In this document: positions 8,361 through 53,296 of the stretch, piece after piece | Layout: each line of letters starts with the position of its first letter | How positions within the stretch are numbered: the stretch's first letter is position 1 | NCBI GenBank assembly: GCA_944391715.1 | Contig: CALXUP010000001.1 | Coordinates: forward strand, 100,676-164,675 | Source: an uncultured Alphaproteobacteria bacterium | GTDB lineage: Bacteria; Pseudomonadota; Alphaproteobacteria; RF32; CAG-239 | Direction of reading: 5' to 3' | Length of the DNA stretch: 64,000 bases | Translations under genes and position numbers: made by a program | Notes under the pieces: model-generated | The model's database searches: none | Told to the model about the DNA's origin: nothing | The model's input: the letters and a program-made list of their open reading frames with translations, nothing else

Positions 8361-9467
8361 ATGAACCCGCAGTCTATTCTTGGAAGATATCTGACCAAAC
8401 AGATTATTTACAATTTTCTTGCCGTTTTGCTGATGGTAATCGGAATTGTTATGCTGTTTGAAGTCGTTGAACTGTTGCGCCGGGCTTCCGGCCGGGACGA
8501 TGCGTCTTTCGGCCTGATTATGGAGATGGCTTTTACCAAACTGCCGAAAACCGTGGAAATGGTTTTTCCGTTTGTGATGATGATTGCGGCCATGATTACG
8601 TTTTGGAAACTCAGCAAAAGTAATGAATTTGTGATTATCCGGAGTGCGGGCGTGTCTATCTGGGGTTTTCTGGCGCCGGTTCTTTTGGCAACGTTTTTGG
8701 TCGGGGTGGTCAATGTTACGGTGGTTAATCCGATTTCTGCCCGGATGAATGAATTGTACGAGACGCTGAATTATCGTTTTAAAACACGTAATCCGAAAGC
8801 TGTTCTTTTTTCTGAAAAAGGGTTGTGGCTGCGGGAGGCAATCAGCGCCGATAAGTTTCTTTATCTGCAGGCAAAATCCGTCCGGCAGGAACAAGATACA
8901 TTATTTTTGCGCGGCGTAACGATTTTGGAGATGAGCAGGGAATCGCAGAATTTGCGCCGGATTGAGGCTTATGCCGCCAATTTGAAGGATGATGTGTTTG
9001 AACTGATTAACGTTAAAATTTATGAGCCCGGAAAGCCAACCGTGTCGCAAGACAGGCTTATGTATAAAACAACCTTGACAATAGAAAGGATAAAAGAAAA
9101 TTTTGTTGAGCCGGAATCTATCTCTTTTTGGGATTTGCCGGATACAATCCATTTTTATGAGATGTCGGGCTTTTCGGCGCAAAAACACCGACTGCGTTAT
9201 TTGTCCCTGCTGGCCTCGCCTTTTCTGCTTTGTTCCATGGTTTTGGTGGCGGCGGTTTTTGCCTTGCGGCCGAATAACCGGCGCGGCGGTGTGATGTATC
9301 TGATTGTCGGCGGGCTTTCTACCGGTTTTATCGTCTATTTTATGTCGCAAGTAATTTATGCTTTCGGAATCAATAATATTATCCCCGGTTTTTTGGCGGT
9401 TTGGACGCCGGCGCTGATTGTGATGATGATTAGCGTGTCGGTTCTCCTCCATCTCGAGGACGGGTAA
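8361..9467 (+). CDS. LptF/LptG-family LPS export permease, the second paralog
   Basis: 368 aa with the same YjgP/YjgQ architecture as 1951..3096 (N-terminal TM bundle, periplasmic domain, C-terminal TMs). Its stop codon is abutted by a MITE-like repeat. Confidence 0.85.
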   Translation: MNPQSILGRYLTKQIIYNFLAVLLMVIGIVMLFEVVELLRRASGRDDASFGLIMEMAFTKLPKTVEMVFPFVMMIAAMITFWKLSKSNEFVIIRSAGVSIWGFLAPVLLATFLVGVVNVTVVNPISARMNELYETLNYRFKTRNPKAVLFSEKGLWLREAISADKFLYLQAKSVRQEQDTLFLRGVTILEMSRESQNLRRIEAYAANLKDDVFELINVKIYEPGKPTVSQDRLMYKTTLTIERIKENFVEPESISFWDLPDTIHFYEMSGFSAQKHRLRYLSLLASPFLLCSMVLVAAVFALRPNNRRGGVMYLIVGGLSTGFIVYFMSQVIYAFGINNIIPGFLAVWTPALIVMMISVSVLLHLEDG

Positions 9468-9698
9468 AAACTGCGCAATACGGACGCCTAATACAGAAAA
9501 GGAAAATCCGGCTAAGTTACGTACGTCTATGTACGCGCCTGTCGCCGGATTTTCCTTTTCTTATTATCCGTCTTAGGTATCTAGGCGCGCTGCGGTTGCT
9601 AACGCTTTCCTAGCTTGCCAAGATGTTCCAAAGAGCTTGCAGACAAAAACAACCGGAGCAGCGGTTGTTTTTACTTAGCGCTTCTATCGCAGTTTTTA
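9465..9698. mobile_element. Complete MITE-like palindromic element, long form (R1+R2 modules, ~234 bp), bounded by the TIRs TAAAAACTGCG / CGCAGTTTTTA. Its first TAA is the lptF-like stop codon.
   Basis: Near-identical to the copy at 17832..18064. The 11-bp terminal inverted repeats are read directly. Internal hairpins sit at 9497-9558 and 9646-9673. Confidence 0.8.
9646..9673. terminator. Bidirectional rho-independent terminator-like hairpin carried inside the repeat (aaaaacaaccg-gagcag-cggttgttttt)
   Basis: 11-bp perfect stem and 6-nt loop, with A-run and T-run flanks giving U-tracts on both strands. The same hairpin recurs at ~9849-9876 and ~18017-18044. Confidence 0.6.
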
Positions 9699-10040
9699 CA
9701 GCGGCTTGAAGAGACGTTTGTTATGGAAAGTTTAAAGCTAACCTGTCGCTAAAATTCTTTTTTCTTATTATCTGACTTAGGCATCTAGGCGCGCTGCGGT
9801 TGCTAACGCTTTCCTTGCTTGCCAAGATGTTACAAAGAGCTTGCAGACAAAAACAACCGGAGCAGCGGTTGTTTTTGCTTAGCGCTTCTATCGCGTTTTT
9901 TACAGCGGCTTGAAAGGAGATTTAGTATGGAAATTTTTTAGGTGGCTAAGTTACGTACGTCTATACGCGCCTGTCGCCTTAAAGTTTTTTTCTTATTACC
10001 AGTCTCATTTTCTTTGTTTTTTACAGTGGCTTGAAGGAAG
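9699..10040. repeat. Degenerate tandem partial copies of the same element (R1 3' half, a second R2 module, then fragments of R1/R2), filling the convergent intergenic space.
   Basis: Recognisable blocks ttaggcatctaggcgcgctgcggttgctaacgc... and ggctaagttacgtacgtctatacgcgcctgtcgcc are shared with the other loci. Confidence 0.75.
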
Positions 10041-10044
10041 GTCG

Positions 10045-11412
10045 TTAACTTTCCAAAATGTTTAAGCTCTGGCTGGTTTTGGCGATATCGGTGGTTATTT
10101 TACGGGTTTCTTCAATATTATCAGCGTTTTCAAAGATATAGAGTGCATCGTGAAAATATTCCAAAGCTTCTTCCAGCAATGCTTTGTCTCCGGCGTTTTT
10201 GCCCAGGCGGTAATAGATTTCGCCGATGTGTTCCTGGCTTTTGGCCCATTCCATCGGTGCCCGCCGTTCGGTTATGACTTTTTGCTGGTTTTTATAGCTG
10301 GCAATGGCAAGTTCCGAGATTTCCTCGCTTTTGGTAAAGTTGCCGAGAAGGCCGAGCATATAGCCCAATTCGCCTTGGATTTGCGCCCAGAATTCCGGAA
10401 ACAAGGCAAGCGTATAAATTTTTTCCGCTTCCCGCAGTTGAAAAACGGCATCGCGCAAAGCCTGAATGTCTTCTTTATACAGCCAGTAGCTTAAAAACAA
10501 ATGGGATAATTTATAAGATATATAGCCGTAATCATACGGGTAATTATATTTGCTCAAATATCTTTGCGCCTGGCGGTAATAGTTAATGGCTTCCCGGAAA
10601 TGACGAGCCGATTGTTTGGGGATGTATTTGGTCGAGCAGTCATAGAGCTGTCCGAGGTGGTTGTAGATACAGCCGAGATGGATTGGTGCGGTTATCAAAT
10701 CCTGATGTTTCAGCGCCGTGTCGAAAAGGTTTTTTACGATTTTGAAGTCTTTGCCCTGGCCGCGGTCAAAACAATAACTGAGGTAAATGATACCCAGAAA
10801 GTTCATTATATAAGGCATATATTCGATGGAGAGGTTTTTGGCGGAATCGTCCTTTGAAAGAGAATTGATTATCCTTTTCAGCAAATATCTTTTTTGGATT
10901 TTCTTTTCTTTTGAAAAAGTATTGAGCGAGCTGACAACGGCGCCGTAAATCAAATTGCCGACGGCGGGCGGAATTTTGTTTCCGGAGGATAATAAATCAG
11001 CCGGGATGTATAAACTGTCCAAGAGTGAAACAAAAGCGCAGTCTTCGTTTTCATATTGTTTTTCGGTCTGAAAATTCAGACGGATCCTGCTGCCTTCGCG
11101 ATATCCCCAAATTAAAACGTCGGCCTGTGTCTTGTCCAAAATGGTTTGTCCCCGGTCAATCAGATCAAACAGTGTCCGGCTTTCCAGATTGAGAAAGGTT
11201 TTGGAGAAAGGTTCATCAAAATATGAGACTTCCAAACCGTCTTTGCCGCTTAACAGGCGTGCGATGACTTCACCGCTGTTGCTTTCTATATTTTCGGAAA
11301 ACTCAACGACGACGACCTTGAATTTTATCAAATCTATGGCATTGACCGCCAAATTCAGATTATCGGGGCGGGTATGAAAAATTTTATGAAAAAAATCGGT
11401 CAGCCGCATCAA
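10045..11412 (-). CDS. Hypothetical 455-aa protein with a TPR-like C-terminal half and an unrecognised N-terminal domain
   Basis: Long ORF with good coding texture and an ATGA start/stop overlap with the upstream gene. The C-terminal region is rich in helical repeats with Y/L/A periodicity (YYRQAQRYL, YYRLGKN). Confidence 0.6.
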   Translation of the reverse strand: MMRLTDFFHKIFHTRPDNLNLAVNAIDLIKFKVVVVEFSENIESNSGEVIARLLSGKDGLEVSYFDEPFSKTFLNLESRTLFDLIDRGQTILDKTQADVLIWGYREGSRIRLNFQTEKQYENEDCAFVSLLDSLYIPADLLSSGNKIPPAVGNLIYGAVVSSLNTFSKEKKIQKRYLLKRIINSLSKDDSAKNLSIEYMPYIMNFLGIIYLSYCFDRGQGKDFKIVKNLFDTALKHQDLITAPIHLGCIYNHLGQLYDCSTKYIPKQSARHFREAINYYRQAQRYLSKYNYPYDYGYISYKLSHLFLSYWLYKEDIQALRDAVFQLREAEKIYTLALFPEFWAQIQGELGYMLGLLGNFTKSEEISELAIASYKNQQKVITERRAPMEWAKSQEHIGEIYYRLGKNAGDKALLEEALEYFHDALYIFENADNIEETRKITTDIAKTSQSLNILES

Positions 11413-12503
11413 TTTCTTTTATCCTTATTTATATTGTCTTTAATGTCTTCAAAATTGCTTTTGATTTCGTTTATGACATTTCGGTTGATTTCGCGAAAAC
11501 TTTGATTAGCGGTTTGCCAGTGTTTCAGTTTGCTTAAATACCAGGCCGTGATTACGGCGCTTAATACCGGGATGGAATAGATATTCGGAGAATAGGCTTC
11601 GAAATATCCGAGAACAATCATGACAATTTCCAGGCGCAGAATGTTGTTGGCGATGTTATCGGGAGAAAGCCCGGAAATATTGGCCTGGAAATAAGCAGTG
11701 TTTGCCGTGATATCGGAATATTTGTCTCTTAAAGCCAGAGCTTGCAGTAAGGCCCAGGAAACTTCGATGATGAAAAACATATTGAAAATTATCAGACAGG
11801 GCGCTGCGCCTTCCGAGGCAGAGCGGAATATTAATCCGCCAAGCAAAAATCCCAGAGCCGTGCAGCCGGCGTCGGAAAGCTGCAAGCGGGCGGGATACCA
11901 GTTGAACAAGAGAAAGGCTCCCGTAACGGCAGCCAGAATCAGCGCCAGAGCGCCGAGCAGATGCGGAAGTGCAGCGGCCAGGGATAAGGTAAATATACCG
12001 AGTGCAACAGCAACCGTATGAAGACCGGCAACACTTTCGACCCCGTTTAAAAAACGGTACAAAAAGCTAAAAGCGAACCATAACAATACAGAGAGGAGCA
12101 GGCTTAACGGCGCCGGAATTTGAGGAAGCAACGGTTGGCTCTCCGGCATAAGGAAGGTCAAAACTGCCGTTCCGGACAGCACGGTCAGGGCGGCATATTT
12201 GGCTGAAAAACGTGAAGAAACATAAAAAATCAGAGCGGTTGCCGCGAGCAGAATCGGAAGTTCAAGCACGGAATATCCGCTGATAAAGTCATTGTCTTGT
12301 CTGAAAACAAATGCTGCAATCAGACCGAAAACGGCGAAAAAAACAAAAATAACGGCAAAAGGCGGAATTTGCCGTTCAAGCCGGGAAATTCTCTGTTGGT
12401 TCAGGACATAAAAACCGGCAAAGCTTAAGAAAAAGCTTGCAACAGCACAAATTGTCAAGAATGTATTGTCAAAATTCATTGCCTGTTTTCTCCGGTTTTC
12501 CAA
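11409..12503 (-). CDS. GT4-family (MraY/WecA-like) polyprenyl-phosphate sugar-phosphate transferase homolog. It is divergent, with an eroded catalytic motif.
   Basis: Multi-TM protein. LFNWYPARLQLSDAGCTALGFLLGG matches the MraY/WecA block FNxNPAKxFMGDxGSxxxGF. The upstream DGxDGL block is replaced by VESVAGL. Confidence 0.6.
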   Translation of the reverse strand: MENRRKQAMNFDNTFLTICAVASFFLSFAGFYVLNQQRISRLERQIPPFAVIFVFFAVFGLIAAFVFRQDNDFISGYSVLELPILLAATALIFYVSSRFSAKYAALTVLSGTAVLTFLMPESQPLLPQIPAPLSLLLSVLLWFAFSFLYRFLNGVESVAGLHTVAVALGIFTLSLAAALPHLLGALALILAAVTGAFLLFNWYPARLQLSDAGCTALGFLLGGLIFRSASEGAAPCLIIFNMFFIIEVSWALLQALALRDKYSDITANTAYFQANISGLSPDNIANNILRLEIVMIVLGYFEAYSPNIYSIPVLSAVITAWYLSKLKHWQTANQSFREINRNVINEIKSNFEDIKDNINKDKRN

Positions 12504-12548
12504 ACTATTGTAGTCGATTAATTTATTTGTTCAATAATCAATGTATTT

Positions 12549-13457
12549 TTATGCGGAGATATCTTTGGGAAGGATTTTTTTCAATGCCGGGATTGCAATA
12601 TCGTGGCGGCGGGCAAAATCCGAAACGGCCATATTGATGTTGTTGATTTCCCGGCGGGACGAATCTCCCGGCGTTTGAGTGTCATAAACATAATTTATCG
12701 GCGTGTTATATATTTTTTTTAATATTTCGGCGTTATCCAAAGAGACATTTTCGGCGGCGGCCAGGGAGCATATTTCATTGACGGCGTCTTCAATGTTGTT
12801 TTGTTTTTCTTTGTTCTTCAGTATGTTGAATATGCTTTGGCGGTAAAAGGCGGAAGCCAGGGCCGAGACGGCGTAGACCGAAAAAGCCTGCCAAAATACC
12901 TGGTTTTTGTCTTCGCAGGTTTGGCAGAGAATCTCGGAACTATGAAAATAACTTAATGCTTTCAGGGAATATTCCAGAGTGTTAAACGGTTTGGAAAGGG
13001 TAATCTGCGGTTCTCCGCCGAGAATGAAAATCTGGTTGTCTTTTGAGAGCAGCCAGCCGTCAAAATATGCCCGAATCGTACTGTGCCGCAACAGGCTTTC
13101 GATAATTCTGAAATCGGGGAGCATTGAAAATACAACAACCGGCGCATTTGAAAAATGAGATGACGAAAGCAGCATCAGTTCGGATTTTAAGTTGCGGCTT
13201 TGGGAGGTGATTATCAGCATTTTGGCTTTTTCGGAGGAATAATGCCGGCAGGGAACGTTTGTTTTTTGTTTTTTCAGGCTGTGTTCTTCCCGCAGGCTGA
13301 TTTCAATTTCGGAATCGCAGCTGTTTCGCGGCGCGATTATAACGGCATTTTCTCCTTTGGCGATGAATTTGGCGGCAAGATATCTGCCGAGAGGCGTGTT
13401 GCCGAGGATATATATCGGTGGTTTTGATACGGATGTTGTTTCTTGAGGTACGGGCAT
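12549..13457 (-). CDS. Ketopantoate reductase (PanE/ApbA) family protein, divergent
   Basis: C-terminal block SSRREINNINMAVSDFARRHDIAIPALKKIL aligns with the ApbA_C motif RRTEIDYINGYVVRLGRRHGVATPVNRAL. The N-terminal Rossmann glycine loop is degenerate (IYILGNTPLGRYLAA). Confidence 0.5.
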   Translation of the reverse strand: MPVPQETTSVSKPPIYILGNTPLGRYLAAKFIAKGENAVIIAPRNSCDSEIEISLREEHSLKKQKTNVPCRHYSSEKAKMLIITSQSRNLKSELMLLSSSHFSNAPVVVFSMLPDFRIIESLLRHSTIRAYFDGWLLSKDNQIFILGGEPQITLSKPFNTLEYSLKALSYFHSSEILCQTCEDKNQVFWQAFSVYAVSALASAFYRQSIFNILKNKEKQNNIEDAVNEICSLAAAENVSLDNAEILKKIYNTPINYVYDTQTPGDSSRREINNINMAVSDFARRHDIAIPALKKILPKDISA

Positions 13458-15356: not shown

Positions 15357-17834
15357 ATGACTGACAGATATAATGGAAAAGGCTCATTTGAGGAATGGGC
15401 AAAAGAATGGGAAACGGAAGACCGCTATAATTTTAAAAAAATTGAAAAAAAGTGGCAGAGCATCTGGGATGAAAACAAGGCTTATAAGGTAGAAATCGAC
15501 AAGAATAAGGAAAAATATTATGTTCTGGTCGAATTTCCTTATCCGTCCGGCGCCGGTCTGCATGTGGGACATCCTCGCTCTTATACGGCATTGGATGTGG
15601 TAGCGCGCAAAAAGAGAATGCAGGGTTTTAACGTTTTGTATCCGATGGGCTTTGATGCTTTCGGTCTGCCGGCGGAGAATTATGCGATTAAAACCGGCGT
15701 TCATCCGGCAGTTTCCACTAAAGCCAATATTGAAAACTTTACCCGCCAGCTGAAGTCAATCGGATTCAGCTTTGACTGGGACAGAGCTTTTAATACCTGT
15801 GATCCGGAATATTATAAGTGGACGCAGTGGATGTTTATCAAACTTTTTGAAAAAGGTTTGGCATATAAAGACAAAATGGCAATCAACTGGTGCCCGTCCT
15901 GCAAAGTCGGTCTGGCTAATGAAGAGGTTGTCAACGGCTGCTGCGAACGTTGCGGTGCGCAGGTTGTTCGTAAGGACAAAGAGCAGTGGATGGTGGCAAT
16001 TACCAAATATGCCGACCGTTTGATTAACGATTTGGATGATTTGGATTTTATTGACCGGGTTAAAGCACAGCAGATTAACTGGATCGGGCGTTCGGAAGGT
16101 GCCGAGCTGGATTTTGATTTGGTTGACGTTCACGGTAATTCTTTGGACGGAAGAAAGCTTAAAGTCTTTACAACGCGTCCGGATACGGCCTTTGGCGTGA
16201 CTTATATGGTTATGGCGCCGGAGCATGCCTTTGTATCCGAGCTGATGCCGCAATTTGAAAATCCGGAAGAAATCAGAGCTTATGTGGCGGAAACGGCCAA
16301 AAAGTCTGATTTGCAGAGAACGATGGATGACAGCAAAACAGGTGTTGAACTGAAAGGGATTAAAGCAAAGAATCCGTTTAACGGAACGTTGATTCCGGTA
16401 TTTATTTCCGATTATGTGCTGACCGGTTACGGTACCGGCGCAATTATGGCGGTGCCGGCTCATGACCAACGCGACTATGATTTTGCCAAGGCTTTTAATC
16501 TGCCGATTATTCAGGTTCTGGCCGGCGGCGATATTGCCGAAAAGGCTTGGGAAGAAGACGGTGCACATATTAATTCCGGCTTTATGGACGGCATGAATAA
16601 AGATGAGGCGATGAAGGCTGCAATTGCTTTTGCCGAAAAGAACGGTTTTGGCAAATCGAAGGTTAATTTCAAACTGCGTGACTGGGTATTTTCACGTCAG
16701 CGTTATTGGGGCGAGCCTATTCCGATGGTCTATTGCGAGCATTGCGGCTGGCAGCCGGTTCCGGAAGACCAGCTCCCTCTGACTTTGCCGGAAGTTCCAG
16801 ATTATCTGCCGAATGATAACGGCGACTCTCCTTTGGCAAAGGCCACCGACTGGGTTAATACAACTTGTCCGAAATGCGGAGCTCCGGCACGCAGAGAGAC
16901 CGATGTTATGCCAAACTGGGCGGGTTCGTCATGGTATTTTCTGCGTTATTGTGATCCGCACAATGACAAAGAGTTTGCCTCTAAAGAAGCGTTGGATTAC
17001 TGGATGAATGTCGATTGGTATAACGGTGGTATGGAGCATACGACTTTACACCTGCTTTATTCGCGTTTTTGGCATAAGTTTTTGTATGACTGCGGTTATG
17101 TGCCGACCAAAGAACCCTATCAGCGCCGGACGTCGCATGGTATGATTTTGGCTGAGAACGGCGAGAAAATGTCAAAATCGCGCGGTAATGTGATTAATCC
17201 CGATGATATTGTTAATAATTACGGGGCAGACAGCTTCCGTCTGTATGAGATGTTTATCGGGCCGTTTGACCAGGTGGCAATGTGGTCCGATGACAGTCTG
17301 AACGGTGTATACCGTTTTGTCGGCAAGGTGTATAACCTGTTTAAGAAGGTTAATAAAAGTGCCAAGCCCTCGGCTAAAGATATTCAGATGATGCACAAGA
17401 CCATTCTTGAAGTTACCGAAAGAATTGATCAGATGAAGTTTAACACGGCGGTTTCTTCTTTGATGACCTATGTAAACCATTTGTCTTCTTTGGATGAGAT
17501 TGCTCCGGAGCTTTATGAAAATCTGCTGCTTTTGATGTGTCCGTTTACGCCGCATCTGGCAGAGGAAATGTGGGCAAGAATGGGGCATACGTCATTGATT
17601 ATTACGGAGCCCTGGCCGAAAGGCGATGCCAAACTGGCTGAGGAAAATACCGTTACTTATGCCGTTCAGATTTGCGGCAAAATGCGCGGTACAATCGATT
17701 TGCCGAAAGACGCACCGCGCGAAGAGGTTGAAAAAGCCGCATTATCGCTTGAAAATGTTAAGCGGCAGTTGGAAGGCAAAGAGGTTAAAAAGGTTATTGT
17801 GGTGCCTAATAAAATCATCAACCTTGTTGCGTAA
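15357..17834 (+). CDS. leuS: Leucyl-tRNA synthetase
   Basis: HIGH motif (HVGHPRSYT), KMSKS motif (KMSKSRGN), class I editing-domain context and leuS-lptE-holA synteny. Confidence 0.95.
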   Translation: MTDRYNGKGSFEEWAKEWETEDRYNFKKIEKKWQSIWDENKAYKVEIDKNKEKYYVLVEFPYPSGAGLHVGHPRSYTALDVVARKKRMQGFNVLYPMGFDAFGLPAENYAIKTGVHPAVSTKANIENFTRQLKSIGFSFDWDRAFNTCDPEYYKWTQWMFIKLFEKGLAYKDKMAINWCPSCKVGLANEEVVNGCCERCGAQVVRKDKEQWMVAITKYADRLINDLDDLDFIDRVKAQQINWIGRSEGAELDFDLVDVHGNSLDGRKLKVFTTRPDTAFGVTYMVMAPEHAFVSELMPQFENPEEIRAYVAETAKKSDLQRTMDDSKTGVELKGIKAKNPFNGTLIPVFISDYVLTGYGTGAIMAVPAHDQRDYDFAKAFNLPIIQVLAGGDIAEKAWEEDGAHINSGFMDGMNKDEAMKAAIAFAEKNGFGKSKVNFKLRDWVFSRQRYWGEPIPMVYCEHCGWQPVPEDQLPLTLPEVPDYLPNDNGDSPLAKATDWVNTTCPKCGAPARRETDVMPNWAGSSWYFLRYCDPHNDKEFASKEALDYWMNVDWYNGGMEHTTLHLLYSRFWHKFLYDCGYVPTKEPYQRRTSHGMILAENGEKMSKSRGNVINPDDIVNNYGADSFRLYEMFIGPFDQVAMWSDDSLNGVYRFVGKVYNLFKKVNKSAKPSAKDIQMMHKTILEVTERIDQMKFNTAVSSLMTYVNHLSSLDEIAPELYENLLLLMCPFTPHLAEEMWARMGHTSLIITEPWPKGDAKLAEENTVTYAVQICGKMRGTIDLPKDAPREEVEKAALSLENVKRQLEGKEVKKVIVVPNKIINLVA

Positions 17835-18064
17835 AAACTGCGCAATACGGACGCCTAATACAGAAAAGGAAAATCCGGCTAAGTTACGTACGTCTATGTA
17901 CGCGCCTGTCGCCGGATTTTCCTTTTCTTATTATCCGTCTTAGGTATCTAGGCGCGCTGCGGTTGCTAACGCTTTCCTAGCTTGCCAAGATGTTCCAAAG
18001 AGCTTGCAGACAAAAACAACCGGAGTAGCGGTTGTTTTTGCTTAGCGCTTCTATCGCAGTTTTT
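17832..18064. mobile_element. Complete MITE-like palindromic element, long form. Its first TAA is the leuS stop codon. The right TIR variant is CGCAGTTTTTG.
   Basis: About 98% identical over ~230 bp to 9465..9698. The same TIR and internal hairpins are read directly. Confidence 0.8.
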
Positions 18065-18195
18065 GCAGCGGCCTGAAGGGGCTTTGTTATTGCAGATGTT
18101 TTTCTTATTTGTGGGCTTTTCCGTAAAAAATTATGGACTTGTGGCGGAAATGCGGTTAAATTTGCTGTAAGTTAATTTTTTATAAAAGGACGAAT

Positions 18196-22002: not shown

Positions 22003-22209
22003 TTATTCTCCTATTTTTTCCCGACAATAAGGTAAATCCAGAATTGCAATAACAGCCGAAATTCCGACCAGCATATAAATAATCTGGGTCAGAATACCGG
22101 CCTCTCCAAAGATGAAAGAAACAAGATTAAATCCAAAGAACCCGATCAGTCCCCAGTTGATCCCTCCGATGATGGTTAAAATTAGAGCGATTTGCCGTAC
22201 AATGTTCAT
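22003..22209 (-). CDS. DUF378-family small membrane protein (68 aa from the internal start MNIVRQ at 22209; the ORF as listed opens at 22314)
   Basis: The GGINWGLIGFFGFNLV motif is typical of DUF378. An RBS GGAGAA precedes the internal ATG. Confidence 0.65.
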   Translation of the reverse strand: MNIVRQIALILTIIGGINWGLIGFFGFNLVSFIFGEAGILTQIIYMLVGISAVIAILDLPYCREKIGE

Positions 22210-22291: not shown

Positions 22292-22990
22292 ATGTACAGC
22301 GAAAAATTTGCCAAAGCGGTTGAGATGCTGCAAAAAGATTTTGCTTTGGAAAGATCTATTGATGAAAAAATTTGTGCCGATCGGGACGGAAGGCCAATTC
22401 CCTGGTATACATTTCCGGCGATTGAGTATTTATCGCAATTTGATTATCGAAACAGAAAAATTTTTGAATACGGCTGCGGTTCTTCTTCGCATTTTTGGGC
22501 GGAGAGAGCCGAAAAGGTCATTAGTATTGAAGATAATCCGAAGTGGTTTGAGAAATGGCAGGCAGAAATGACGGAATCTAATCTGGAGGTTCGCTGGCGG
22601 GATGAAGGCGAGATTTATGAAAATGCCATTTTTGAACAGGAAGATTTGTTTGATGTTATTGTGGTTGACGGTAAAAGACGGGCGGAATGTTGTGCGGCGG
22701 CGGTGCAAAGACTGACTAAGGGCGGAATGATTATTCTTGATGACAGCGACAGGGTTAATACCAGCCAGGAATATCGAAAAGCGATTGCCATTCTTCGGGA
22801 AAGCGGATTGATTCAGGTGGATTTTTATGGTTTTTGCCCAATGAATTGTTATACCAAAACAACCAGTCTGTTTTTGAGCCGGGATTTTGATTTTGAATCA
22901 AAATATGAGGTTCAGCCGATAAACGGATTGGGAAATTTATGGTCGATGAGCCGACGAGAAAGAAAGGATTTTTATAAGAAAATGGCATAA
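22292..22990 (+). CDS. Putative class I SAM-dependent methyltransferase
   Basis: Motif I-like IFEYGCGSSSHFWA and an acidic motif II/post-I (VISIEDN), followed by VIVVDG...GGMIILDD, typical of the Rossmann MTase fold. A terminator follows. Confidence 0.55.
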   Translation: MYSEKFAKAVEMLQKDFALERSIDEKICADRDGRPIPWYTFPAIEYLSQFDYRNRKIFEYGCGSSSHFWAERAEKVISIEDNPKWFEKWQAEMTESNLEVRWRDEGEIYENAIFEQEDLFDVIVVDGKRRAECCAAAVQRLTKGGMIILDDSDRVNTSQEYRKAIAILRESGLIQVDFYGFCPMNCYTKTTSLFLSRDFDFESKYEVQPINGLGNLWSMSRRERKDFYKKMA

Positions 22991-22992
22991 AA

Positions 22993-23031
22993 AACAGGAT
23001 TGCGGTTTTTTACCGGAATCCTGTTTTTTTT
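22993..23031 (+). terminator. Rho-independent terminator after the methyltransferase gene
   Basis: Hairpin caggattgcgg/ccggaatcctg followed by TTTTTTTT. Confidence 0.6.
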
Positions 23032-32727: not shown

Positions 32728-32804
32728 GTACCCGTAGCTCAGTTGGATAGAGTATCGGCCTCCGACGCCGAGAGTCGTGGGTTCGAATCCCTCCGGGTAC
32801 GCCA
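32728..32804 (+). tRNA. tRNA-Arg, anticodon CCG
   Basis: Cloverleaf read by hand: a 7-bp acceptor stem GTACCCG/CGGGTAC, the D-arm GCTCAGTTGGATAGAGT and the anticodon loop CU-CCG-AC with U33 and A37. The T-loop is TTCGAAT, with discriminator G and an encoded CCA. It closely parallels E. coli tRNA-Arg(CCG). One U-U mismatch sits in the T-stem. Confidence 0.85.
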
Positions 32805-32809
32805 TAAAT

Positions 32810-32841
32810 AAAAGCCACTCCTTTAGTGAGTGGCTTTTATT
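32810..32841 (+). terminator. Rho-independent terminator after the tRNA
   Basis: aaaagccactc-ctttagt-gagtggctttt hairpin followed by a T-run. Confidence 0.7.
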
Positions 32842-32899
32842 TATGTTGGGTGCCGGCGGATTTGAACTTACAGTTTTGTTTTCCGGTATCTTGTCTATA

Positions 32900-33566: not shown

Positions 33567-34277
33567 ATGGAAATTTATAAGGAAAATTTACCGCCTTGTT
33601 GGTGGGACGGGCGTTTTGGGAAATTTAACATAAAATGTTCTCTGTCGTATAGGATTTTGGCATTGGAAAAGGGTGCGGAAACTATGTGGCAGGAACGGCA
33701 ATGGTTTATTTTTACGGATAAGCTGACGCGAGTTTCTCTGCGTTCTTTTGTCATGATTGAAAAAGAAACTTTTACCGGGCATCCTTTTTTCAAACTGGTT
33801 ATTGAAAATGAGCCGGTTTCTGAAAGCGATTTTCCGGAAGATTCTTTGGTGTATGAAAGTTTTTATCAAGATCCGGTCGGATACGGTGCAACAGTCGGCA
33901 AGAACTTCTACAGCAGCTTTAGCGCCTTAATGCTTCCGCCCTTTCAAAATCAAACGGGATATTGTATTGGCGGTATATATTTTCGAACGGAACTTGATGA
34001 AGATTTTCAAAAAAAGAAAACAGATCGTTATCTGGTTACTCCGAAAGAATTTTGCGCAAAGGTTTCATGGAAACATCTGGTGAAATATGCCAAGCCGTAC
34101 AATGCTTGTTTTGCTGCAGCGCGGGTAAAGAAATATCCGGACAAGATTTTTGCCGGACGGAGAGTTGTTCCGTTGTATATTGCGGATATTTGTGTCGGGG
34201 CAGAGCTCCTTGGCAGTAAGGGAAAGCCAAATTGCCGAGAGTATATGTCTTTTGAAGACTATTTGTCCTTATTGTAA
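33567..34277 (+). CDS. Hypothetical protein (236 aa), no recognisable domain, low GC
   Basis: Long ORF with coding-like composition, AT-rich relative to its neighbours, preceded by a very AT-rich promoter-like region. Confidence 0.5.
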   Translation: MEIYKENLPPCWWDGRFGKFNIKCSLSYRILALEKGAETMWQERQWFIFTDKLTRVSLRSFVMIEKETFTGHPFFKLVIENEPVSESDFPEDSLVYESFYQDPVGYGATVGKNFYSSFSALMLPPFQNQTGYCIGGIYFRTELDEDFQKKKTDRYLVTPKEFCAKVSWKHLVKYAKPYNACFAAARVKKYPDKIFAGRRVVPLYIADICVGAELLGSKGKPNCREYMSFEDYLSLL

Positions 34278-34321
34278 ATAAAAAAAAGCCGGGAGTTTTT
34301 TACTTTCCGGCCTTTTTATTT

Positions 34322-35179
34322 TTAAGACAATTTTCGGAGGAGGATTTTGAGCTTTCCTTTTAACGTCAACCTTGCTTTCTCCCATTGGACAAACGAATAA
34401 AGAACCGGATAGAGCTTGTCATTGATCTGAAAAACACAATGATAATTTTTCAGTTTATATTTTCCTTCGTCAACCAGGTCAGCACATCCCTTAGATACAG
34501 CATAAAGCTTGGCATTGCCGCTTTCATCCAAAAGAAGATAAGCATTGTCAAAAGTAATAATGTTTTTTCCTTCTGCAAAAAATTTATAAGCCCCGACTTT
34601 GGGAACAAAACCGTAAATTTTCATCTTGTTATTACAATCATCAACGGTTATCAACTCTGCTTTAGCAGGACTGTCGTAACGATAAATATCAAAATATCCA
34701 TCACTTCTTTCAATAACAATCGTTTCATCACAGATAAAAAACGGTTTGCTATACTGTTTTTGAATAAGTTTAAAAGGGTCTGCTGTTAAAAAAGACATAG
34801 TATAATTTTCTTCCGGATAACTTTTCAGATAGAAACATTGTTTCGTTTTAAAAGAACCATAATTTTCGGCTTTTCCCAGACATTCATCTTTGCCCGAAAC
34901 GTTTTTCCGTCTCAGATACCAAAGCCCGTCTTTTTGATATATCAGGCATTTGTCATATTTTTTGATATCAGAACAGTACTGCGGGGTTTGATGCAGTTTG
35001 TCATCCTCAATCCAGAAAAAGCGAAAATTTTCCTCTGAATCTCCCGCTTTTGCCTCCGTCAAAGATTGATCAACCGTAACAGTAATACCCTCGTCCAGCT
35101 TTTCAAACTTTTCCAATTTACTGTCCCATAGCCACAAAATATTCAGGCCGGCAGCTTTTGTAATAATAAAATGTTTCAT
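34322..35179 (-). CDS. Hypothetical protein (~286 aa from MKHFII at 35179), no recognisable domain, low GC
   Basis: Long ORF convergent with 33567..34277. Cys-containing soluble protein. Confidence 0.5.
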   Translation of the reverse strand: MKHFIITKAAGLNILWLWDSKLEKFEKLDEGITVTVDQSLTEAKAGDSEENFRFFWIEDDKLHQTPQYCSDIKKYDKCLIYQKDGLWYLRRKNVSGKDECLGKAENYGSFKTKQCFYLKSYPEENYTMSFLTADPFKLIQKQYSKPFFICDETIVIERSDGYFDIYRYDSPAKAELITVDDCNNKMKIYGFVPKVGAYKFFAEGKNIITFDNAYLLLDESGNAKLYAVSKGCADLVDEGKYKLKNYHCVFQINDKLYPVLYSFVQWEKARLTLKGKLKILLRKLS

Positions 35180-44727: not shown

Positions 44728-44956
44728 CTTTTCTCTCCTCAAAATCATACATTAATTATATTAACACGCCGGAGGGTTGATTCCAAAATAAATCTTTTTC
44801 TTTTCCAACAATATTTTTATAACCGGCCGAAAGAATGATATTTGCCGATTCTTAACCTATTGTTTAGAAAGAAATAATAAGATAACGGGCAGAACCACGG
44901 CGGGAATCCGTTTGGTTTCCGTTGGTTTGTTGGTATCAATCTATAAGGAAAATCAT

Positions 44957-47368
44957 ATGTTTGGTTTGAAAAATTTTAAGACTTTCGCCGGTGCCCTGAT
45001 GCTGGCGCTGGTCGGGGTGGTTCAAGGGGCGTATGCTTCAGAAATCGACCTCAAAATTCCGTCTTTGGACGTGGAATACAATATCTTCGGTTATTCCGTC
45101 CTGGGATCGCAGATTTTGTTTTATGGTATGAGCATCTGTGTTCTCGGTATGCTTTTTGGTTTGTATGAATTTCTTAAAATCAAAAAAATGCCGGCTCACG
45201 AAGCCATGCTGAAAGTATCGGAACTGATTTATGCGACCTGCAAAACCTATATGAAACAACAAGCTAAACTGCTTTTGCTTCTGGAATTGTTTATTGCGGT
45301 TTGTATTTTCTACTATTTCTATTATCTCAACGCAACGCCGATGCCGAAAGTGCTGACAATTCTTTCCTGGTCGGTTCTCGGTATTCTCGGGTCTTATTCG
45401 GTGGCCTGGTTCGGTATGCGCATTAACAATTATGCCAATGCCCGCACAGCCTTTTCTTCTTTGGAAGCCAAGGCTTATAAGGTTATGAGCCTGCCGCTGC
45501 GTTCCGGCATGTCTATCGGTGTTTTGCTGATTTGCGTTGAGCTGATTATGATGATTGCCATTCTTTTGTTTGTGCCGAAAGAAAGCGCAGGCGCCTGCTT
45601 TATCGGATTTGCCATCGGTGAATCTTTAGGTGCGGCGGCTTTGCGTATTTGCGGCGGTATCTTTACCAAGATTGCCGATATCGGTGCGGATTTGATGAAG
45701 ATTATTTTCAAAATCGGTGAAGATGATGCCCGCAATCCGGGTGTGATTGCCGACTGTACCGGTGATAATGCCGGCGACTCCGTCGGTCCGACCGCCGATG
45801 GTTTTGAGACTTACGGCGTTACCGGTGTGGCTCTTATCAGCTTTATCGTTCTGGGTGCCGGTATGATGTATGCCCCGAACGGTGATTTGACCCTGATGCC
45901 GAACGGTGTTGATTTTCAGGCTCGTCTGATTGTCTGGATTTTTGCAATGAGACTCCTGATGATTATTACTTCGCTGGTTTCTTACTGGCTTAATAACAAA
46001 GTTTCTTCCGCCCTTTACGGCAAAAAGGAATTTTTTGATTTTGAAAAACCGTTGACCAGCCTGATTTGGTTTACTTCCATTATCTCGATTGCCGTTACTT
46101 TCGGCGTTTCTTATGTGATGATCGGTGATCTCAGCCCGGATTTGTGGTGGAGACTTTCTCTGATTATCAGCTGTGGTACTTTGGCTGCGGCTTTGATTCC
46201 GGAATTTACCAAAATCTTTACTTCGTCAAAATCCCAACATGTTCAGGAAATTGTCAAATCCAGTCGTGAGGCCGGTGCTTCTCTGAACATTATTTCCGGT
46301 ATCGTTGCCGGTAATTTCTCGGCTTTTTGGCAGGGTATAGTTATGGTCGGCCTGATGGTGGTTGCGTTCTTTACCGCCCAATCCGGTTTGGACAGCTTTA
46401 TGGTTTATCCGACAGTCTTTGCTTTCGGTCTGGTAGCTTTCGGTATGCTCGGCATGGGGCCGGTTACGATTGCCGTAGACAGCTATGGCCCGGTAACCGA
46501 TAATGCCCAGTCTGTTTTTGAGCTTTCTCAGATTGAAGGTATTAAGAACGTTGACAAAGATATTGAGAAAAAATACGGCTTTAAACCGAATTTTGAGCAG
46601 GGCAAACATTTGCTCGAGGCCAATGACGGCGCCGGAAATACCTTTAAAGCAACGGCTAAGCCGGTGCTTATCGGTACGGCCGTTATCGGTGCTACAACGA
46701 TGATTTTCTCAATTATCCTGTTGCTTAACCTGAAACTGAATCTGCTGGATCCGCAAGTCCTGTTCGGCCTTATTCTCGGCGGTGCGGTGATTTACTGGTT
46801 CTCCGGCGCTTCAATGCAGGCGGTTTCGACCGGGGCTTATCGTGCAGTTGATTTTATTAAAAAACATATCAAACTGAGCGGTAAGAAAGCGGCTTCGCAG
46901 AAAGACTCTCAGGAAGTGGTCAAGATTTGCACAATTTATGCGCAAAAGGGTATGTTTAATATCTTTATCGTAATCTTTTCCTTTACGATTGCTTTTGCCT
47001 GCTTTGATGCAAATCTGTTTGCAAGCTATCTGATTTCAATTGCCGTATTTGGTTTGTTCCAAGCGCTGTTTATGGCAAATGCCGGCGGTGCATGGGATAA
47101 CGCCAAGAAAGTGGTTGAAGTTGATTTGAACGAGAAAGGTACGCCGCTGCATGACGCTACCGTTGTCGGCGATACGGTCGGTGATCCGTTCAAAGATACG
47201 TCTTCCGTTGCTCTCAACCCGATTATCAAATTTACAACCTTGTTTGGTTTGTTGGCGGTTGAGATGGCCGTAGCGGCTCCGAGATGTGTATCTCTGGGGC
47301 TGGGTATTTTCTTCTTATTGTTGGGGTTGGTATTTGTATATCGGTCTTTCTACAAGATGAAAATATAA
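44957..47368 (+). CDS. hppA: Membrane-bound proton-translocating pyrophosphatase (H+-PPase)
   Basis: About 800 aa and 15+ TM. The conserved GDNAGD and DxxGDxxGD motif region (CTGDNAGDSVGPTADGFETY) is present, and an AAGGAAAA RBS precedes the ATG at 44957. Confidence 0.9.
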   Translation: MFGLKNFKTFAGALMLALVGVVQGAYASEIDLKIPSLDVEYNIFGYSVLGSQILFYGMSICVLGMLFGLYEFLKIKKMPAHEAMLKVSELIYATCKTYMKQQAKLLLLLELFIAVCIFYYFYYLNATPMPKVLTILSWSVLGILGSYSVAWFGMRINNYANARTAFSSLEAKAYKVMSLPLRSGMSIGVLLICVELIMMIAILLFVPKESAGACFIGFAIGESLGAAALRICGGIFTKIADIGADLMKIIFKIGEDDARNPGVIADCTGDNAGDSVGPTADGFETYGVTGVALISFIVLGAGMMYAPNGDLTLMPNGVDFQARLIVWIFAMRLLMIITSLVSYWLNNKVSSALYGKKEFFDFEKPLTSLIWFTSIISIAVTFGVSYVMIGDLSPDLWWRLSLIISCGTLAAALIPEFTKIFTSSKSQHVQEIVKSSREAGASLNIISGIVAGNFSAFWQGIVMVGLMVVAFFTAQSGLDSFMVYPTVFAFGLVAFGMLGMGPVTIAVDSYGPVTDNAQSVFELSQIEGIKNVDKDIEKKYGFKPNFEQGKHLLEANDGAGNTFKATAKPVLIGTAVIGATTMIFSIILLLNLKLNLLDPQVLFGLILGGAVIYWFSGASMQAVSTGAYRAVDFIKKHIKLSGKKAASQKDSQEVVKICTIYAQKGMFNIFIVIFSFTIAFACFDANLFASYLISIAVFGLFQALFMANAGGAWDNAKKVVEVDLNEKGTPLHDATVVGDTVGDPFKDTSSVALNPIIKFTTLFGLLAVEMAVAAPRCVSLGLGIFFLLLGLVFVYRSFYKMKI

Positions 47369-47492
47369 AAACTGCGCAATACGGACGCCTAATACAGAAA
47401 AGGGAAATCCGGCTAAGTTACGTACGTTTATGTACGCGCCTGTTGCCGGATTTTCCTTTTCTTATTATCCGTCGCGTCTATCGCAGTTTTTA
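47366..47492. mobile_element. Complete MITE-like element, short form (R1 module joined directly to the right TIR, 127 bp). Its first TAA is the hppA stop codon.
   Basis: TIRs TAAAAACTGCG / CGCAGTTTTTA. The body is ~95% identical to the R1 module at 9465 and 17832. Confidence 0.8.
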
Positions 47493-47760
47493 CAGGGGTT
47501 TGAAAGGGCGTTTAGTATAGAAAGTTCTTAAGGCTAATCATGTACCACTACGTACACTCCTGTCGCTTTAAAGGTTTTTTCTTATTACTAGCCTCATTCT
47601 CCGTGATTTTTGGTAAAAACAGCGCTCTGTGGTCACCTAATACAGAAAAAAGAATTTTAGCTAAGTCATGTATGCTTTTATACACTCCTGTCGCTAAAAT
47701 TCTTTTTTCGTATTATCCGTCTTAGGTATTTAGGCGCGCTGCAATATGTTCCGAAGATAC
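47493..47760. repeat. Degenerate and partial copies of the same family, including a second left arm TAAAAACAGCGCTCTGTGGTCACCTAATACAG at 47614 and a truncated R2 5' end
   Basis: Shared blocks cctaatacagaaaa, cctgtcgc...cttattatccgtcttaggtat. Confidence 0.7.
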
Positions 47761-52168: not shown

Positions 52169-52906
52169 ATGTTTAGATTAGATGGAAAAATTGCCCTGAT
52201 TACCGGTGCTGCCGGCGGTTTGGGGGATAAAATCGCCCGGACGCTGCATGCTCAGGGGGCAACATTGGCTTTGACCGATATGCGCGAAGAGCCGATGCTT
52301 AAACTGAAAGAAGAGCTCGGTTCCAATGTTGAGGTCTTTACGGCCAACCTGACGAATCCGGATGATGTTAAGTCTTTGGTAGAAAAAGTTGAGGCAAAAC
52401 TCGGCCGGATTGATATTTTGGTTAACAACGCCGGTTTGACCCGCGATAACCTTTTTATCAGAATGAGCGACGAAGACTGGCAGCTGGTTTTGGATGTTAA
52501 CCTTTCCGCCGGTTTCAAATTGGCAAAAGCTGCCGTTCGCGGTATGATGAAACGCCGTTACGGTCGTATTATCGGCATTGCCTCGGTTGTCGGCGTTACC
52601 GGAAATGCCGGTCAGGCCAACTATTCTGCCTCCAAGGCCGGTATGATTGCCATGAACAAATGTCTGGCTCAGGAAGTCGGCTCACGCGGCATTACCGTAA
52701 ACTCGATTGCGCCGGGCTTTATCCGCACGCCGATGACTGATGTTTTGCCGGAAGATGTTAAAAAAGCTCTGTTGGCGAAAATTCCGGAAGGCAAACTCGG
52801 TGAAGCTCAGGATATTGCCAATGTTGTAGCATTTTTGGCTTCCGATGAGGCGCAGTATATTACGGGACAGACTATTAATATCAATGGCGGAATGGCCATG
52901 ATTTAA
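52169..52906 (+). CDS. fabG: 3-oxoacyl-ACP reductase
   Basis: TGAAGGLG cofactor motif, the NNAG motif and the YSASKAG catalytic tetrad context. Confidence 0.95.
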   Translation: MFRLDGKIALITGAAGGLGDKIARTLHAQGATLALTDMREEPMLKLKEELGSNVEVFTANLTNPDDVKSLVEKVEAKLGRIDILVNNAGLTRDNLFIRMSDEDWQLVLDVNLSAGFKLAKAAVRGMMKRRYGRIIGIASVVGVTGNAGQANYSASKAGMIAMNKCLAQEVGSRGITVNSIAPGFIRTPMTDVLPEDVKKALLAKIPEGKLGEAQDIANVVAFLASDEAQYITGQTININGGMAMI

Positions 52907-52917
52907 AACTTGCAAAA

Positions 52918-52996
52918 GGCCGGTCATGCTTGTTTCTTTTCTCCTCGTGTACCTTTTTTGTACACGTCGTCGAAAAAAAACGGCGCAGCACCGGCC
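52918..52996. repeat. R3 palindromic module copy a (~79 bp; outer stem GGCCGGT/ACCGGCC, inner stem CGTGTAC/GTACACG)
   Basis: Directly repeated ~85% at 53149..53228; nested inverted repeats read directly. Confidence 0.7.
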
Positions 52997-53010
52997 TTTA
53001 TCAAGTTTTT

Positions 53011-53136
53011 TAAAACCGCGCTCTGTGGTCACCTAATACAGAAAAAGGAAATCCGGCTAAGTTATGTACGTTTATGTACGCGCCTGTCGCCGGATTTCCT
53101 TTTTCTTATTATCCGTCGCGTCTATCGCGGTTTTTA
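53011..53136. mobile_element. Complete MITE-like element, short form, with covarying TIR variant TAAAACCGCG / CGCGGTTTTTA
   Basis: Body ~90% identical to 47366..47492. Both TIR arms carry a compensatory T->C and A->G change relative to the other copies. Confidence 0.8.
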
Positions 53137-53148
53137 CAGCGGCTAAAA

Positions 53149-53228
53149 GGGCTGGTCATACTTGTTCCTTTTCTCCTCGTGTATCTGTTTGGTACACGTT
53201 GTTGGAAAGTAACTGCGTAGCACCAGCC
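53149..53228. repeat. R3 palindromic module copy b, followed by a degenerate left-arm fragment (aaaactgtgttttgtggttacctagtatat)
   Basis: Sequence similarity to 52918..52996. Confidence 0.7.
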
Positions 53229-53261
53229 TTTTATAAAACTGTGTTTTGTGGTTACCTAGTA

Positions 53262-53296
53262 TATAAAAAACTCCGGAAGTGTTTTCCGGAGTTTTA
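53262..53296 (-). terminator. Rho-independent terminator downstream of grpE
   Basis: actccgga/tccggagt hairpin with a U-tract on the minus-strand transcript. Confidence 0.6.

Follow-up and report, generated by a model that had tools for sequence, protein, structure and literature searches.

Hairpin repeat units that share their first three bases with the stop codons of co-oriented genes in an uncultured gut alphaproteobacterium

Here, we describe a family of hairpin-forming repeat units in a stretch of 64,000 nucleotides (nt) of contig CALXUP010000001.1 from an uncultured gut alphaproteobacterium (this whole stretch is called the window; coordinates refer to it and to its plus strand unless stated otherwise). 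Four arrays of such units are located directly behind lptG, leuS, hppA and fabG, and in each case the stop codon of the gene is at the same time the beginning of the first unit. The host proteins retain their native C-termini, the stem of the unit covaries down to the stop codon, the orientation of the units is locked to replication, and strains differ in the units they carry. We read the unit as a strand-specific, probably single-stranded-DNA, mobile and non-autonomous hairpin that resides in the terminator slot behind leading-strand genes; in our judgement this is an even call.

Association of the repeat units with stop codons

The four junctions read GGG-TAA-AAACTGCGC at 9465, GCG-TAA-AAACTGCGC at 17832, ATA-TAA-AAACTGCGC at 47366 and ATT-TAA-AACTTGCAAAAGG at 52904, where TAA closes the open reading frames (ORFs) 8361..9467, 15357..17834, 44912..47368 and 52169..52906, respectively. 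According to NCBIfam, the products are LptG (TIGR04408), LeuS, a membrane pyrophosphatase and FabG; the first gene, named lptF-like in a preliminary description of this DNA, is thus lptG. The same description held that the repeats sit flush against these four stops and that the first base past the sense codons is the T of the repeat end. Both statements are confirmed, as the stop constitutes the first three bases of the unit and the similarity between copies starts at the stop T. The copies behind lptG and leuS, two unrelated genes, are 97-99% identical over 255 nt; 255 nt at 97% identity behind unrelated genes suggest recent spread or homogenisation. A motif of the right unit arm has 8 matches in the window, all on the plus strand, compared with 0.1 in shuffled sequences. 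Together, the arrays (9465-10041, 17832-18115, 47366-47742 and 52904-53243) account for approximately 2.5% of the window, and an extension past both window ends revealed no additional unit.

For a census beyond the window, metagenomes were scanned with an internal 19-base motif, which is neutral with respect to position, and the family was found in human-gut and rumen contigs. For each of the four loci, exact-protein look-ups provided nine to ten strains of the species to which the window belongs, plus relatives, and a covariance model, R1, recovered more copies. A scan of a genome collection with the 14-mer CCTAATACAGAAAA proved too short a query and returned nearly exclusively chance matches, locus L027 alone being real; in viral contigs the 19-base motif gave one chance match only. 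Counting distinct upstream genes, and with the window loci included, the census comprises 18 gene-adjacent loci with 17 different genes.

The first unit is flush with the stop in 12 of these 18 loci (lptG, leuS, hppA, fabG, ppdK, thyA, a MacB-like gene, a glycosyltransferase gene and four unnamed genes), and the stops involved are TAA, TAG or TGA. Three loci show a gap of 1-2 nt and a second TAA (TAA-AA-TAAAAAAACG, TAG-T-TAAAAGCG and TAA-AG-TAAAAGTG), and in another three (TrmL, RlmN and one unnamed gene) the reading frame enters the unit by 4-5 codons and ends at an internal TAA. No first unit starts more than 2 nt beyond a stop. The sole unit not behind a protein gene, at locus L136, resides in the intervening loop of a permuted transfer-messenger RNA (tmRNA) gene. 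In the non-coding DNA of the window, plus-strand gene stops make up 8% of the plus-strand TAA sites and 4% of the TA sites; by our own arithmetic, at a rate of 8% the probability that 12 or more of the 18 loci are flush is about 1e-9, and flushness therefore exceeds chance. The 4 nt upstream of the left unit ends are not conserved. A strong preference for stop codons, as proposed in the preliminary description, hence stands as a polar and unusually precise positional preference across genes, strains and species, whereas its explanation by targeting of TA dinucleotides is not established and fits poorly.

The C-termini of the host proteins are native. Profile alignments end 0-6 positions short of the profile end (LptG 350/351, LeuS 841/843, pyrophosphatase 801/807 and FabG 245/245). 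The best 120 relatives of LeuS (82-94% identical) mostly end in ...N[IL]VA before the stop, as does the LeuS of the window, and at L123 and L125, where leuS is not followed by a repeat, TAA is found at the same position and an ordinary terminator follows. Element-free LeuS orthologs accordingly end at the same residue, with TAA. Complete host proteins are likewise found at repeat loci of relatives (ThyA 264/264, MacB-like permease 646/648, pyrophosphatase 804/807 and PPDK 865/865). We therefore conclude that gene and unit share the stop triplet only. The idea that insertions had replaced the native 3' ends of the four window genes, leaving their C-termini defined by the element and the 3' ends of essential genes specified by a repeat, has to be given up.

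The read-in minority differs in the last residues. TrmL ends in ...KKRV, RlmN in ...KKLV and the unnamed protein in ...EKLV, each with 4-5 codons provided by the unit and a normal total length (genes at L150 1743-2219, minus strand; L156 301-1428, minus strand; and L123 17011-18075, plus strand). In these genes, no in-frame stop is present at the unit start, and the reading frame closes within GTA-TAA-YGG, at its internal TAA. Where a unit has five A's, the first and the internal TAA share one reading frame, and the internal one thus acts as a tandem back-up stop.

Structure, orientation and variation of the units

Short-form units comprise approximately 125-135 nt, long-form units approximately 234 nt including a nested module of 107 nt. 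Unit C1 (47366-47492) folds into a single hairpin of -60.8 kcal/mol (z = -8.3), in which the U of the stop codon pairs with the final A of the unit. In an alignment of 19 different unit copies, 95.2% of the cells are paired, versus 79% in shuffled alignments and less than 54% with slid partners, and compensatory changes occur in 24 of 48 stem pairs. Covariation extends to the base of the stem (TAAGACAGCG/CACTGTCTTA and TGAAAATGCG/CGCATTTTCA), where changes at the second stop base are matched by the base opposite, e.g., in the latter pair. The left side of the base consists of T-R-R, an A-tract and a GC stem, the right side of a GC stem, a T-tract and A. Since the base reads T-R-R, the 5' end of the unit is in itself a stop codon. 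In build, this base matches the native bidirectional terminators of the compact genome, about 40% of which likewise have their start on the stop. The unit carries terminal inverted repeats (TAAAAACTGCG and CGCAGTTTTTA) and as a whole represents an imperfect palindrome. Its orientation is nevertheless defined, because the tip, GCTAAGTYAYGTAC...GTACRC.CCTGTCGC, is asymmetric and conserved; the boxes CTAATACAGAAAA/TTTTCTTATTA are conserved as well.

Two types of unit can be told apart. Type II units begin with CAGCGGCTTGAAGG, come after type I units and pair mostly via G-U: their left arm shows G-U in place of A-U and G-C pairs. They fold better on the top than on the bottom strand (-29.4 versus -21.2 kcal/mol at 47493-47613, -32.8 versus -20.0 kcal/mol at 9903-10023). 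Type I units show no excess of G-U (20) over A-C (about 16), and their bottom strand folds slightly better. As a side observation, AAGGAGATTTAGTATGGAAATTTTTTAG in the type II heads reads as a Shine-Dalgarno sequence followed by a mini-ORF of four codons, MEIF and stop (9915-9950; also at L176 and L179); this mini-ORF is probably a mere complement of the CTCATTCTCC arm.

Two further modules are associated with the units. R3 is a distinct hairpin of 109 nt (-46 kcal/mol on the top strand, -55 on the bottom strand), whose ends, TAAAACTTG...CAAGTTTTTTA, are alike in kind to those of the units. The 107-nt module, TTAGGTATCTAGGCGCGCTGCGG...CAAAAACAACCGGAGCAGCGGTTGTTTTT..CTTAGC, lies within long-form units, nested in their right arm between ..ATCCGTC and GCGTCTATCGC, and holds a canonical terminator-like hairpin of its own. 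With copies at 9573-9679, 9777-9883 and 17940-18046 and a truncated one at 47722-47742, it looks like a separate element that inserts into units. A search of the window against Rfam at the gathering threshold returned a tRNA (32728-32801) as the sole match and none for the units; at E <= 10, nothing more attained the gathering score of any family, and the units match no known RNA family. A simple promoter and terminator scan gave nothing informative, the loops and stems of the units being larger than its limits.

The position of all units in the window is given in Table 1. The array behind lptG ends at 10041, 3 nt ahead of the stop of a convergent minus-strand gene (TTA, 10045-10047), the array behind leuS is followed by the start of lptE at 18196, and the second R3-like module by a native-looking terminator at about 53264-53296 and the stop of grpE at 53316-53318.

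Table 1. Repeat units, modules and shared stop codons in the window.
Feature	Position	Strand	Remarks
lptG stop TAA	9465..9467	+	ORF 8361..9467; doubles as first 3 nt of unit A1
Unit A1, long-form type I, TAAAAACTGCG...CGCAGTTTTTA	9465..9698	+	nested 107-nt module 9573-9679; 97-99% identical to leuS copy
Unit A2	9699..9902	+	type II head CAGCGGCTTGAAG..., apical loop deleted; second 107-nt module copy 9777-9883
Unit A3, type II	9903-10023	+	followed by the start of another type II head, 10024-10041
leuS stop TAA, initially flagged site	17832..17834	+	ORF 15357..17834; doubles as first 3 nt of unit B1
Unit B1, long-form type I	17832..18065	+	nested 107-nt module 17940-18046
Partial type II unit, CAGCGGCCTGAAGGGGC...TTTCTTATTTGTGGG	18066..18115	+	same partial unit at the orthologous site in L122
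Unit C1, short-form type I, 127 nt	47366..47492	+	first 3 nt are the hppA stop (ORF 44912..47368)
Unit C2, type II	47493..47613	+	left arm G-U-rich; folds well on top strand only (-29.4 vs -21.2 kcal/mol)
Unit C3, type I, TAAAAACAGCG...	47614..47742	+	broken off within a partial 107-nt module, ragged right array end
R3 hairpin module, TAAAACTTG...CAAGTTTTTTA	52904..53012	+	first 3 nt are the fabG stop (ORF 52169..52906)
Unit D1, type I, TAAAACCGCGC...CGCGGTTTTTA	53011..53136	+	TA overlap with the R3 end
Second R3-like module	53137..53243	+	type II-like head; R3 similarity 53146-53231

The association with stops is one-sided. Right ends of units lie 34-300 nt from antisense stops, the array ends are ragged and carry truncated modules, and among the units examined no reversed copy flush with an antisense stop was found. 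The plus strand of the window has a GC skew of +0.08 to +0.20 throughout (+0.13 overall), with +0.19 over plus-strand and +0.09 over minus-strand genes, which resolves into components of about 0.14 for replication and about 0.05 for the coding strand. The genes show no leading-strand bias (28 on the plus, 32 on the minus strand), and every unit is found on the plus strand, behind plus-strand genes. In 32 of 33 loci, the G-rich, leading strand coincides with the unit's top strand; the single exception is a fragment of 1.5 kb, and its ortholog is positive. The orientation follows replication and not transcription, as can be seen at L136. There, the unit (12525-12660, minus strand) lies within a permuted alphaproteobacterial tmRNA gene (12366-12868, plus strand; Rfam RF01849, 202.9 bits, with an insertion of approximately 150 nt) and is antisense to ssrA, yet its orientation is again the G-rich one.

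At the hppA, fabG and lptG loci, number and identity of the units vary between strains whose flanking proteins are identical. Behind hppA, 2 to 5 units were observed with three different first units, TAA-AAACTGCG, TAA-AAAATCACG and TAG-GG-TAAAACCGCG, one allele reading TAG-GG-TAAAACC. The fabG alleles start with TAA-AACTTGC and R3, with TAA-AACTTGC and a unit, or with TAG-TTTTCAGCCG...CGGCTGAAAAC, in which the polarity of the A and T runs is inverted; at L175 and L179, of the same species, ordinary units follow the fabG stop in place of R3. First units behind lptG begin with TAA-AAACTGCGC or TAA-AAAACGCGC, and in a chimera of 145 nt the left arm comes from A1 and the right arm from A3, with the conserved loop as the junction. 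Such short fused alleles (L185, L187, L188 and L192 for lptG, L175 for hppA) have their junction at the conserved CCTGTCGC loop and arms that no longer pair, and we therefore conclude that arrays contract by loop-to-loop recombination. An extra hppA unit is located between the stop and the earlier first unit, with TAAAAA on both sides.

At their left end, alleles differ from base 7 of the unit or from the third base of the stop onwards, TAG and TAA alleles sharing TA only. Homologous conversion alone is therefore insufficient, and gene conversion was rejected as the sole source of allele diversity for the leftmost part. A 94%-identity relative carries a different unit behind leuS, which is likewise flush, and more than one species has units at its leuS and hppA sites; some sites are therefore old or recurrent. 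The basal stem is identical at lptG, leuS and hppA and differs between alleles at one locus. As this stem travels with the unit, the idea of a mobile core inserted into existing native terminator stems was discarded for recent copies.

Candidate mechanism and competing explanations

Under the strand-specific reading, the unit would move as a folded single strand on the lagging-strand template, presumably by means of an enzyme of the HUH/Y1 or a functionally similar type. Integration would have a fixed polarity, with the 5' TAA/A-tract end directed towards the 3' end of a co-oriented gene. Purifying selection would then tolerate an in-frame TAA or a quick internal stop; the other frames read at least 35 codons into the unit. 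Copies expected to survive would have their TAA on the stop, lie at most 2 nt past it, or lie a few codons before it and be rescued by the internal in-frame TAA. Once colonised, a site may gain, lose and swap units via recombination at the conserved loop and events at TAAAAA microhomologies, the boundary staying on the stop. The unit would be co-transcribed and might serve as a hairpin or terminator at the 3' end, with its base under the terminating ribosome, and the gene would keep its native C-terminus and stop position, sharing the stop triplet with the base of the stem. We prefer strand-specific integration because it best fits the fixed polarity, the lock to replication, the lack of a duplication, the paired termini, the precision at the stop and the turnover.

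Several points weigh against this reading. Neither a transposase nor a recombinase was found; searched by tblastn with an IS200 TnpA, 583 kb of related sequence gave no match, which is a weak test on a small sample. Nor did we find a clean pair of an empty and a filled site that would document a single fresh insertion. The unit forms one hairpin over its full length and has neither the separate left-end and right-end hairpins of IS200/IS605 nor the GT[AG]G foot of REPs. Top and bottom folding energies give no consistent strand signal, type I being symmetric or bottom-favoured and type II top-favoured. The fabG TAG allele, with its T-run on the left and its A-run on the right, is not terminator-shaped, and a terminator function is therefore not universal. 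A target of 3 nt (TAA/TRR) alone cannot yield the observed precision, given the null of 8%; later compaction or microhomology deletions could stand behind part of the flushness, and as units at leuS and hppA are not limited to one species, many boundaries may be old rather than freshly targeted. As neither an enzyme nor a fresh junction was found and the 3-nt target does not suffice, the targeting step stays an inference.

A bolder version, which we regard as rather doubtful, would make the unit an undescribed mobile hairpin that integrates at the replication fork in a strand-specific manner and is targeted to the stops of leading-strand genes. The addition of units next to the stop would then build polar arrays, which would supply or replace the terminators of core genes; the unit would in effect be a mobile terminator that begins with the stop codon of its host gene.

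An unlikely account takes flushness as a by-product of genome compaction. Units would land anywhere in the 3' spacer or replace the terminator, and a deletion bias together with slippage at TAAAA would trim the spacer without any targeting of stops. The native terminators of the window are in line with a general tendency of this kind. Among about 10 clear ones, 4 start 0-1 nt from the stop and the others 6-19 nt away, an example being TAAAAAACAGGATT...AATCCTGTTTTTTTT at 22988, and convergent spacers measure only about 20-90 nt. In native bidirectional terminators at 34275-34324, 22003-22060 and 22988-23030, the A-tract starts on the stop, and one native bidirectional terminator is flush with both stops of its two convergent genes. 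Since native terminators often start on the stop, the pattern is partly general to 3' ends in a compact genome. The basal stem of most units, a GC-rich stem with A-tract and T-tract, resembles the native terminators at 22990, 22003 and 34277/34322, and the order of TAA, A-tract and stem is a native design of this genome. Near-flush intermediates retain two TAAs (e.g., TAA-AA-TAAAAAAACG), the presence or absence of the extra hppA front unit is bounded by direct TAAAAA repeats, and sites common to several species are old enough for trimming. However, units are tighter than native terminators: 18 of 18 units are read into or start within 2 nt of the stop, versus 4 of 10 native terminators (Fisher p about 0.001 by our own arithmetic, the choice of native terminators being subjective). 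The TAG alleles at hppA and fabG cannot be obtained by TAAAA slippage, copies of 97-99% identity are flush already, and the lock to replication orientation is left unexplained.

Alternatively, the unit might be a structured RNA of the 3' untranslated region, which the host has selected, be it as terminator, stabiliser or translation-coupled element, and which needs to start at the stop, with mobility incidental or extinct. We hold this to be quite improbable. The strong covariation and the conserved apical motif would suit such an RNA, units are always sense to a preceding protein gene, and folding of type II units is confined to the RNA-sense (top) strand, by way of G-U pairs. Liang, Rudd and Deutscher reportedly described in 2015 that REPs near stop codons affect translation. 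Co-opted terminators have also been considered for SPRITE repeats (PMC3049150). Orientation, however, tracks replication rather than transcription: the tmRNA-gene unit runs antisense to ssrA, and none of the 32 minus-strand genes of the window carries a unit. Strains with identical flanking proteins vary in number and identity of units, arrays reach up to 5 units and include chimeric alleles that do not pair, type I units have no excess of G-U over A-C and a slightly better folding bottom strand, and Rfam has no match.

An ordinary TA-targeting miniature inverted-repeat transposable element of the IS630/Tc1-mariner type, as Correia or RUP, which would duplicate TA and rebuild the stop TAA harmlessly, selection purging the rest, is very improbable: TA-specific elements of this kind are known (PMC2229807), the ends are inverted repeats with T-A at both extremities in most copies, and empty orthologous sites carry TAA at the same position, but reversed copies are missing, although symmetric termini would let them rebuild TAA, and no copy lies more than 2 nt past a stop, yet only 4% of intergenic TA sites are stops of plus-strand genes. 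TA is self-complementary, and TA...TA therefore cannot tell a duplication from an inverted repeat. The informative ends are inverted and not direct (TG...CA at L171, G...C at L156), single units end in TTTTTC (L133) or TTTTTTG (L140) without a right-hand TA, and the right side of the fabG TAG allele lacks TA as well. No direct flanking repeat that would indicate a target-site duplication was found at the single units of L133, L140, L132 and L168.

Relation to known repeats and further observations

In the way they work, the units come closest to SPRITE and to REP/REPIN or IS200/IS605 elements. Among the known repeats, IS200/IS605 elements and PATEs share with the units a fixed polarity with the left end next to a short specific sequence, the lack of a duplication and the dependence on hairpins (PMC5027513, PMC3597680). 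For IS608, insertion on the lagging-strand template invariably places the left end 3' of a short target (PMC5027513), and the strong orientation bias of these elements, with the active strand on the lagging-strand template, is in good agreement with the 32 of 33 units in G-rich orientation. In contrast, they possess separate subterminal left-end and right-end hairpins and a target of 4-5 nt, whereas the left sequence common to the units is T-R-R at most and forms part of the paired stem. Left and right ends could be mimicked by a type I unit together with a type II unit, but solitary type I units occur too.

REPs, BIMEs and REPINs with their RAYT (PMC3333891, PMC3116915, PMC6006769, PMC3733652) are extragenic hairpins downstream of genes and form mosaic arrays of alternating types. 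They are presumed to move as single-stranded DNA and are co-transcribed with the upstream gene; REPINs are long hairpins of about 100 nt. The units do not carry the GT[AG]G or CGTC foot tag of REPs (PMC6006769, PMC3733652), and each is one hairpin with an asymmetric conserved tip instead of two inverted REPs of 20-40 nt. A strict replication-locked orientation and abutment to stops are not described for REPs. In the fetched loci, no RAYT gene and no inverted pair of units around an ORF were seen. The CGTC-tagged alphaproteobacterial REPs (PMC3733652) were considered as a candidate and rejected, as the units show neither stems of 8-9 bp with loops of 4-5 nt nor a terminal tag.

SPRITE (PMC3049150) is a small interspersed repeat with AAAA/TTTT termini and a long stem followed by a T-rich tract, which is enriched near gene 3' ends and between convergent genes; neither a duplication nor a transposase was identified, and a co-opted terminator was proposed. 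It differs by its occurrence in Firmicutes and by a leading-strand bias of only 63%, which mirrors the gene bias; a start on the stop codon is not reported, and arrays of alternating types are not described. We know of no sequence relation between SPRITE and these units.

Correia/NEMIS, RUP and ERIC elements (PMC2229807) comprise 100-170 nt, carry terminal inverted repeats with T-A ends and form RNA hairpins when co-transcribed. They occur, however, in both orientations, with a TA duplication and at variable distance from genes, whereas the units have a fixed orientation, termini that covary within the stem and a position locked to the stop. A full-length insertion sequence with the same ends was not seen in approximately 580 kb of fetched loci.

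Integron attC sites often overlap the stop codon of the preceding ORF. As imperfect palindromes with a length of about 60-140 nt, they recombine in the form of folded single strands, lie directly behind an ORF and are all co-oriented in a fixed relation to replication (PMC5371416). The units differ from them in their ends, TAAAAAC...GTTTTTA, without RYYYAAC/GTTRRRY core sites, and in their hosts, which are scattered core housekeeping genes (leuS, lptG, fabG, hppA, thyA) and not cassettes. No integrase appears in the gene lists of the examined loci, and no attI site was seen.

Our literature search found no report of a repeat family locked to both stop codons and replication direction. If the pattern held genome-wide, the position of an element would be set to the nucleotide by the end of translation and its orientation by replication; neither rule has been reported for REP, Correia, ERIC, RUP or SPRITE. 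The units would then offer a natural system for how a DNA element becomes confined to the terminator slot of genes. They could show whether mobile hairpins supply terminators to leuS, lptG, fabG, hppA, thyA and ppdK, and what effect single-strand-specific mobility has on compact genomes. They can also append element-encoded tails of 4-5 residues to proteins, and as strain-level length polymorphisms they are usable for typing.

Two minor observations may be added. The Logan short-read contigs L121, L190, L191 and L193 stop 26-60 nt into the first unit behind lptG or leuS, and the repeats therefore fragment these assemblies of gut metagenome-assembled genomes. Apart from the units, a terminator hairpin lies behind the gene of tRNA-Arg(CCG) in the region 32728-32868; next to it comes, in inverted orientation, the 3' fragment of a different tRNA (GTTCAAATCCGCCGGCACCCAAC, minus strand, about 32846-32868), which could be the remnant of an integration site.

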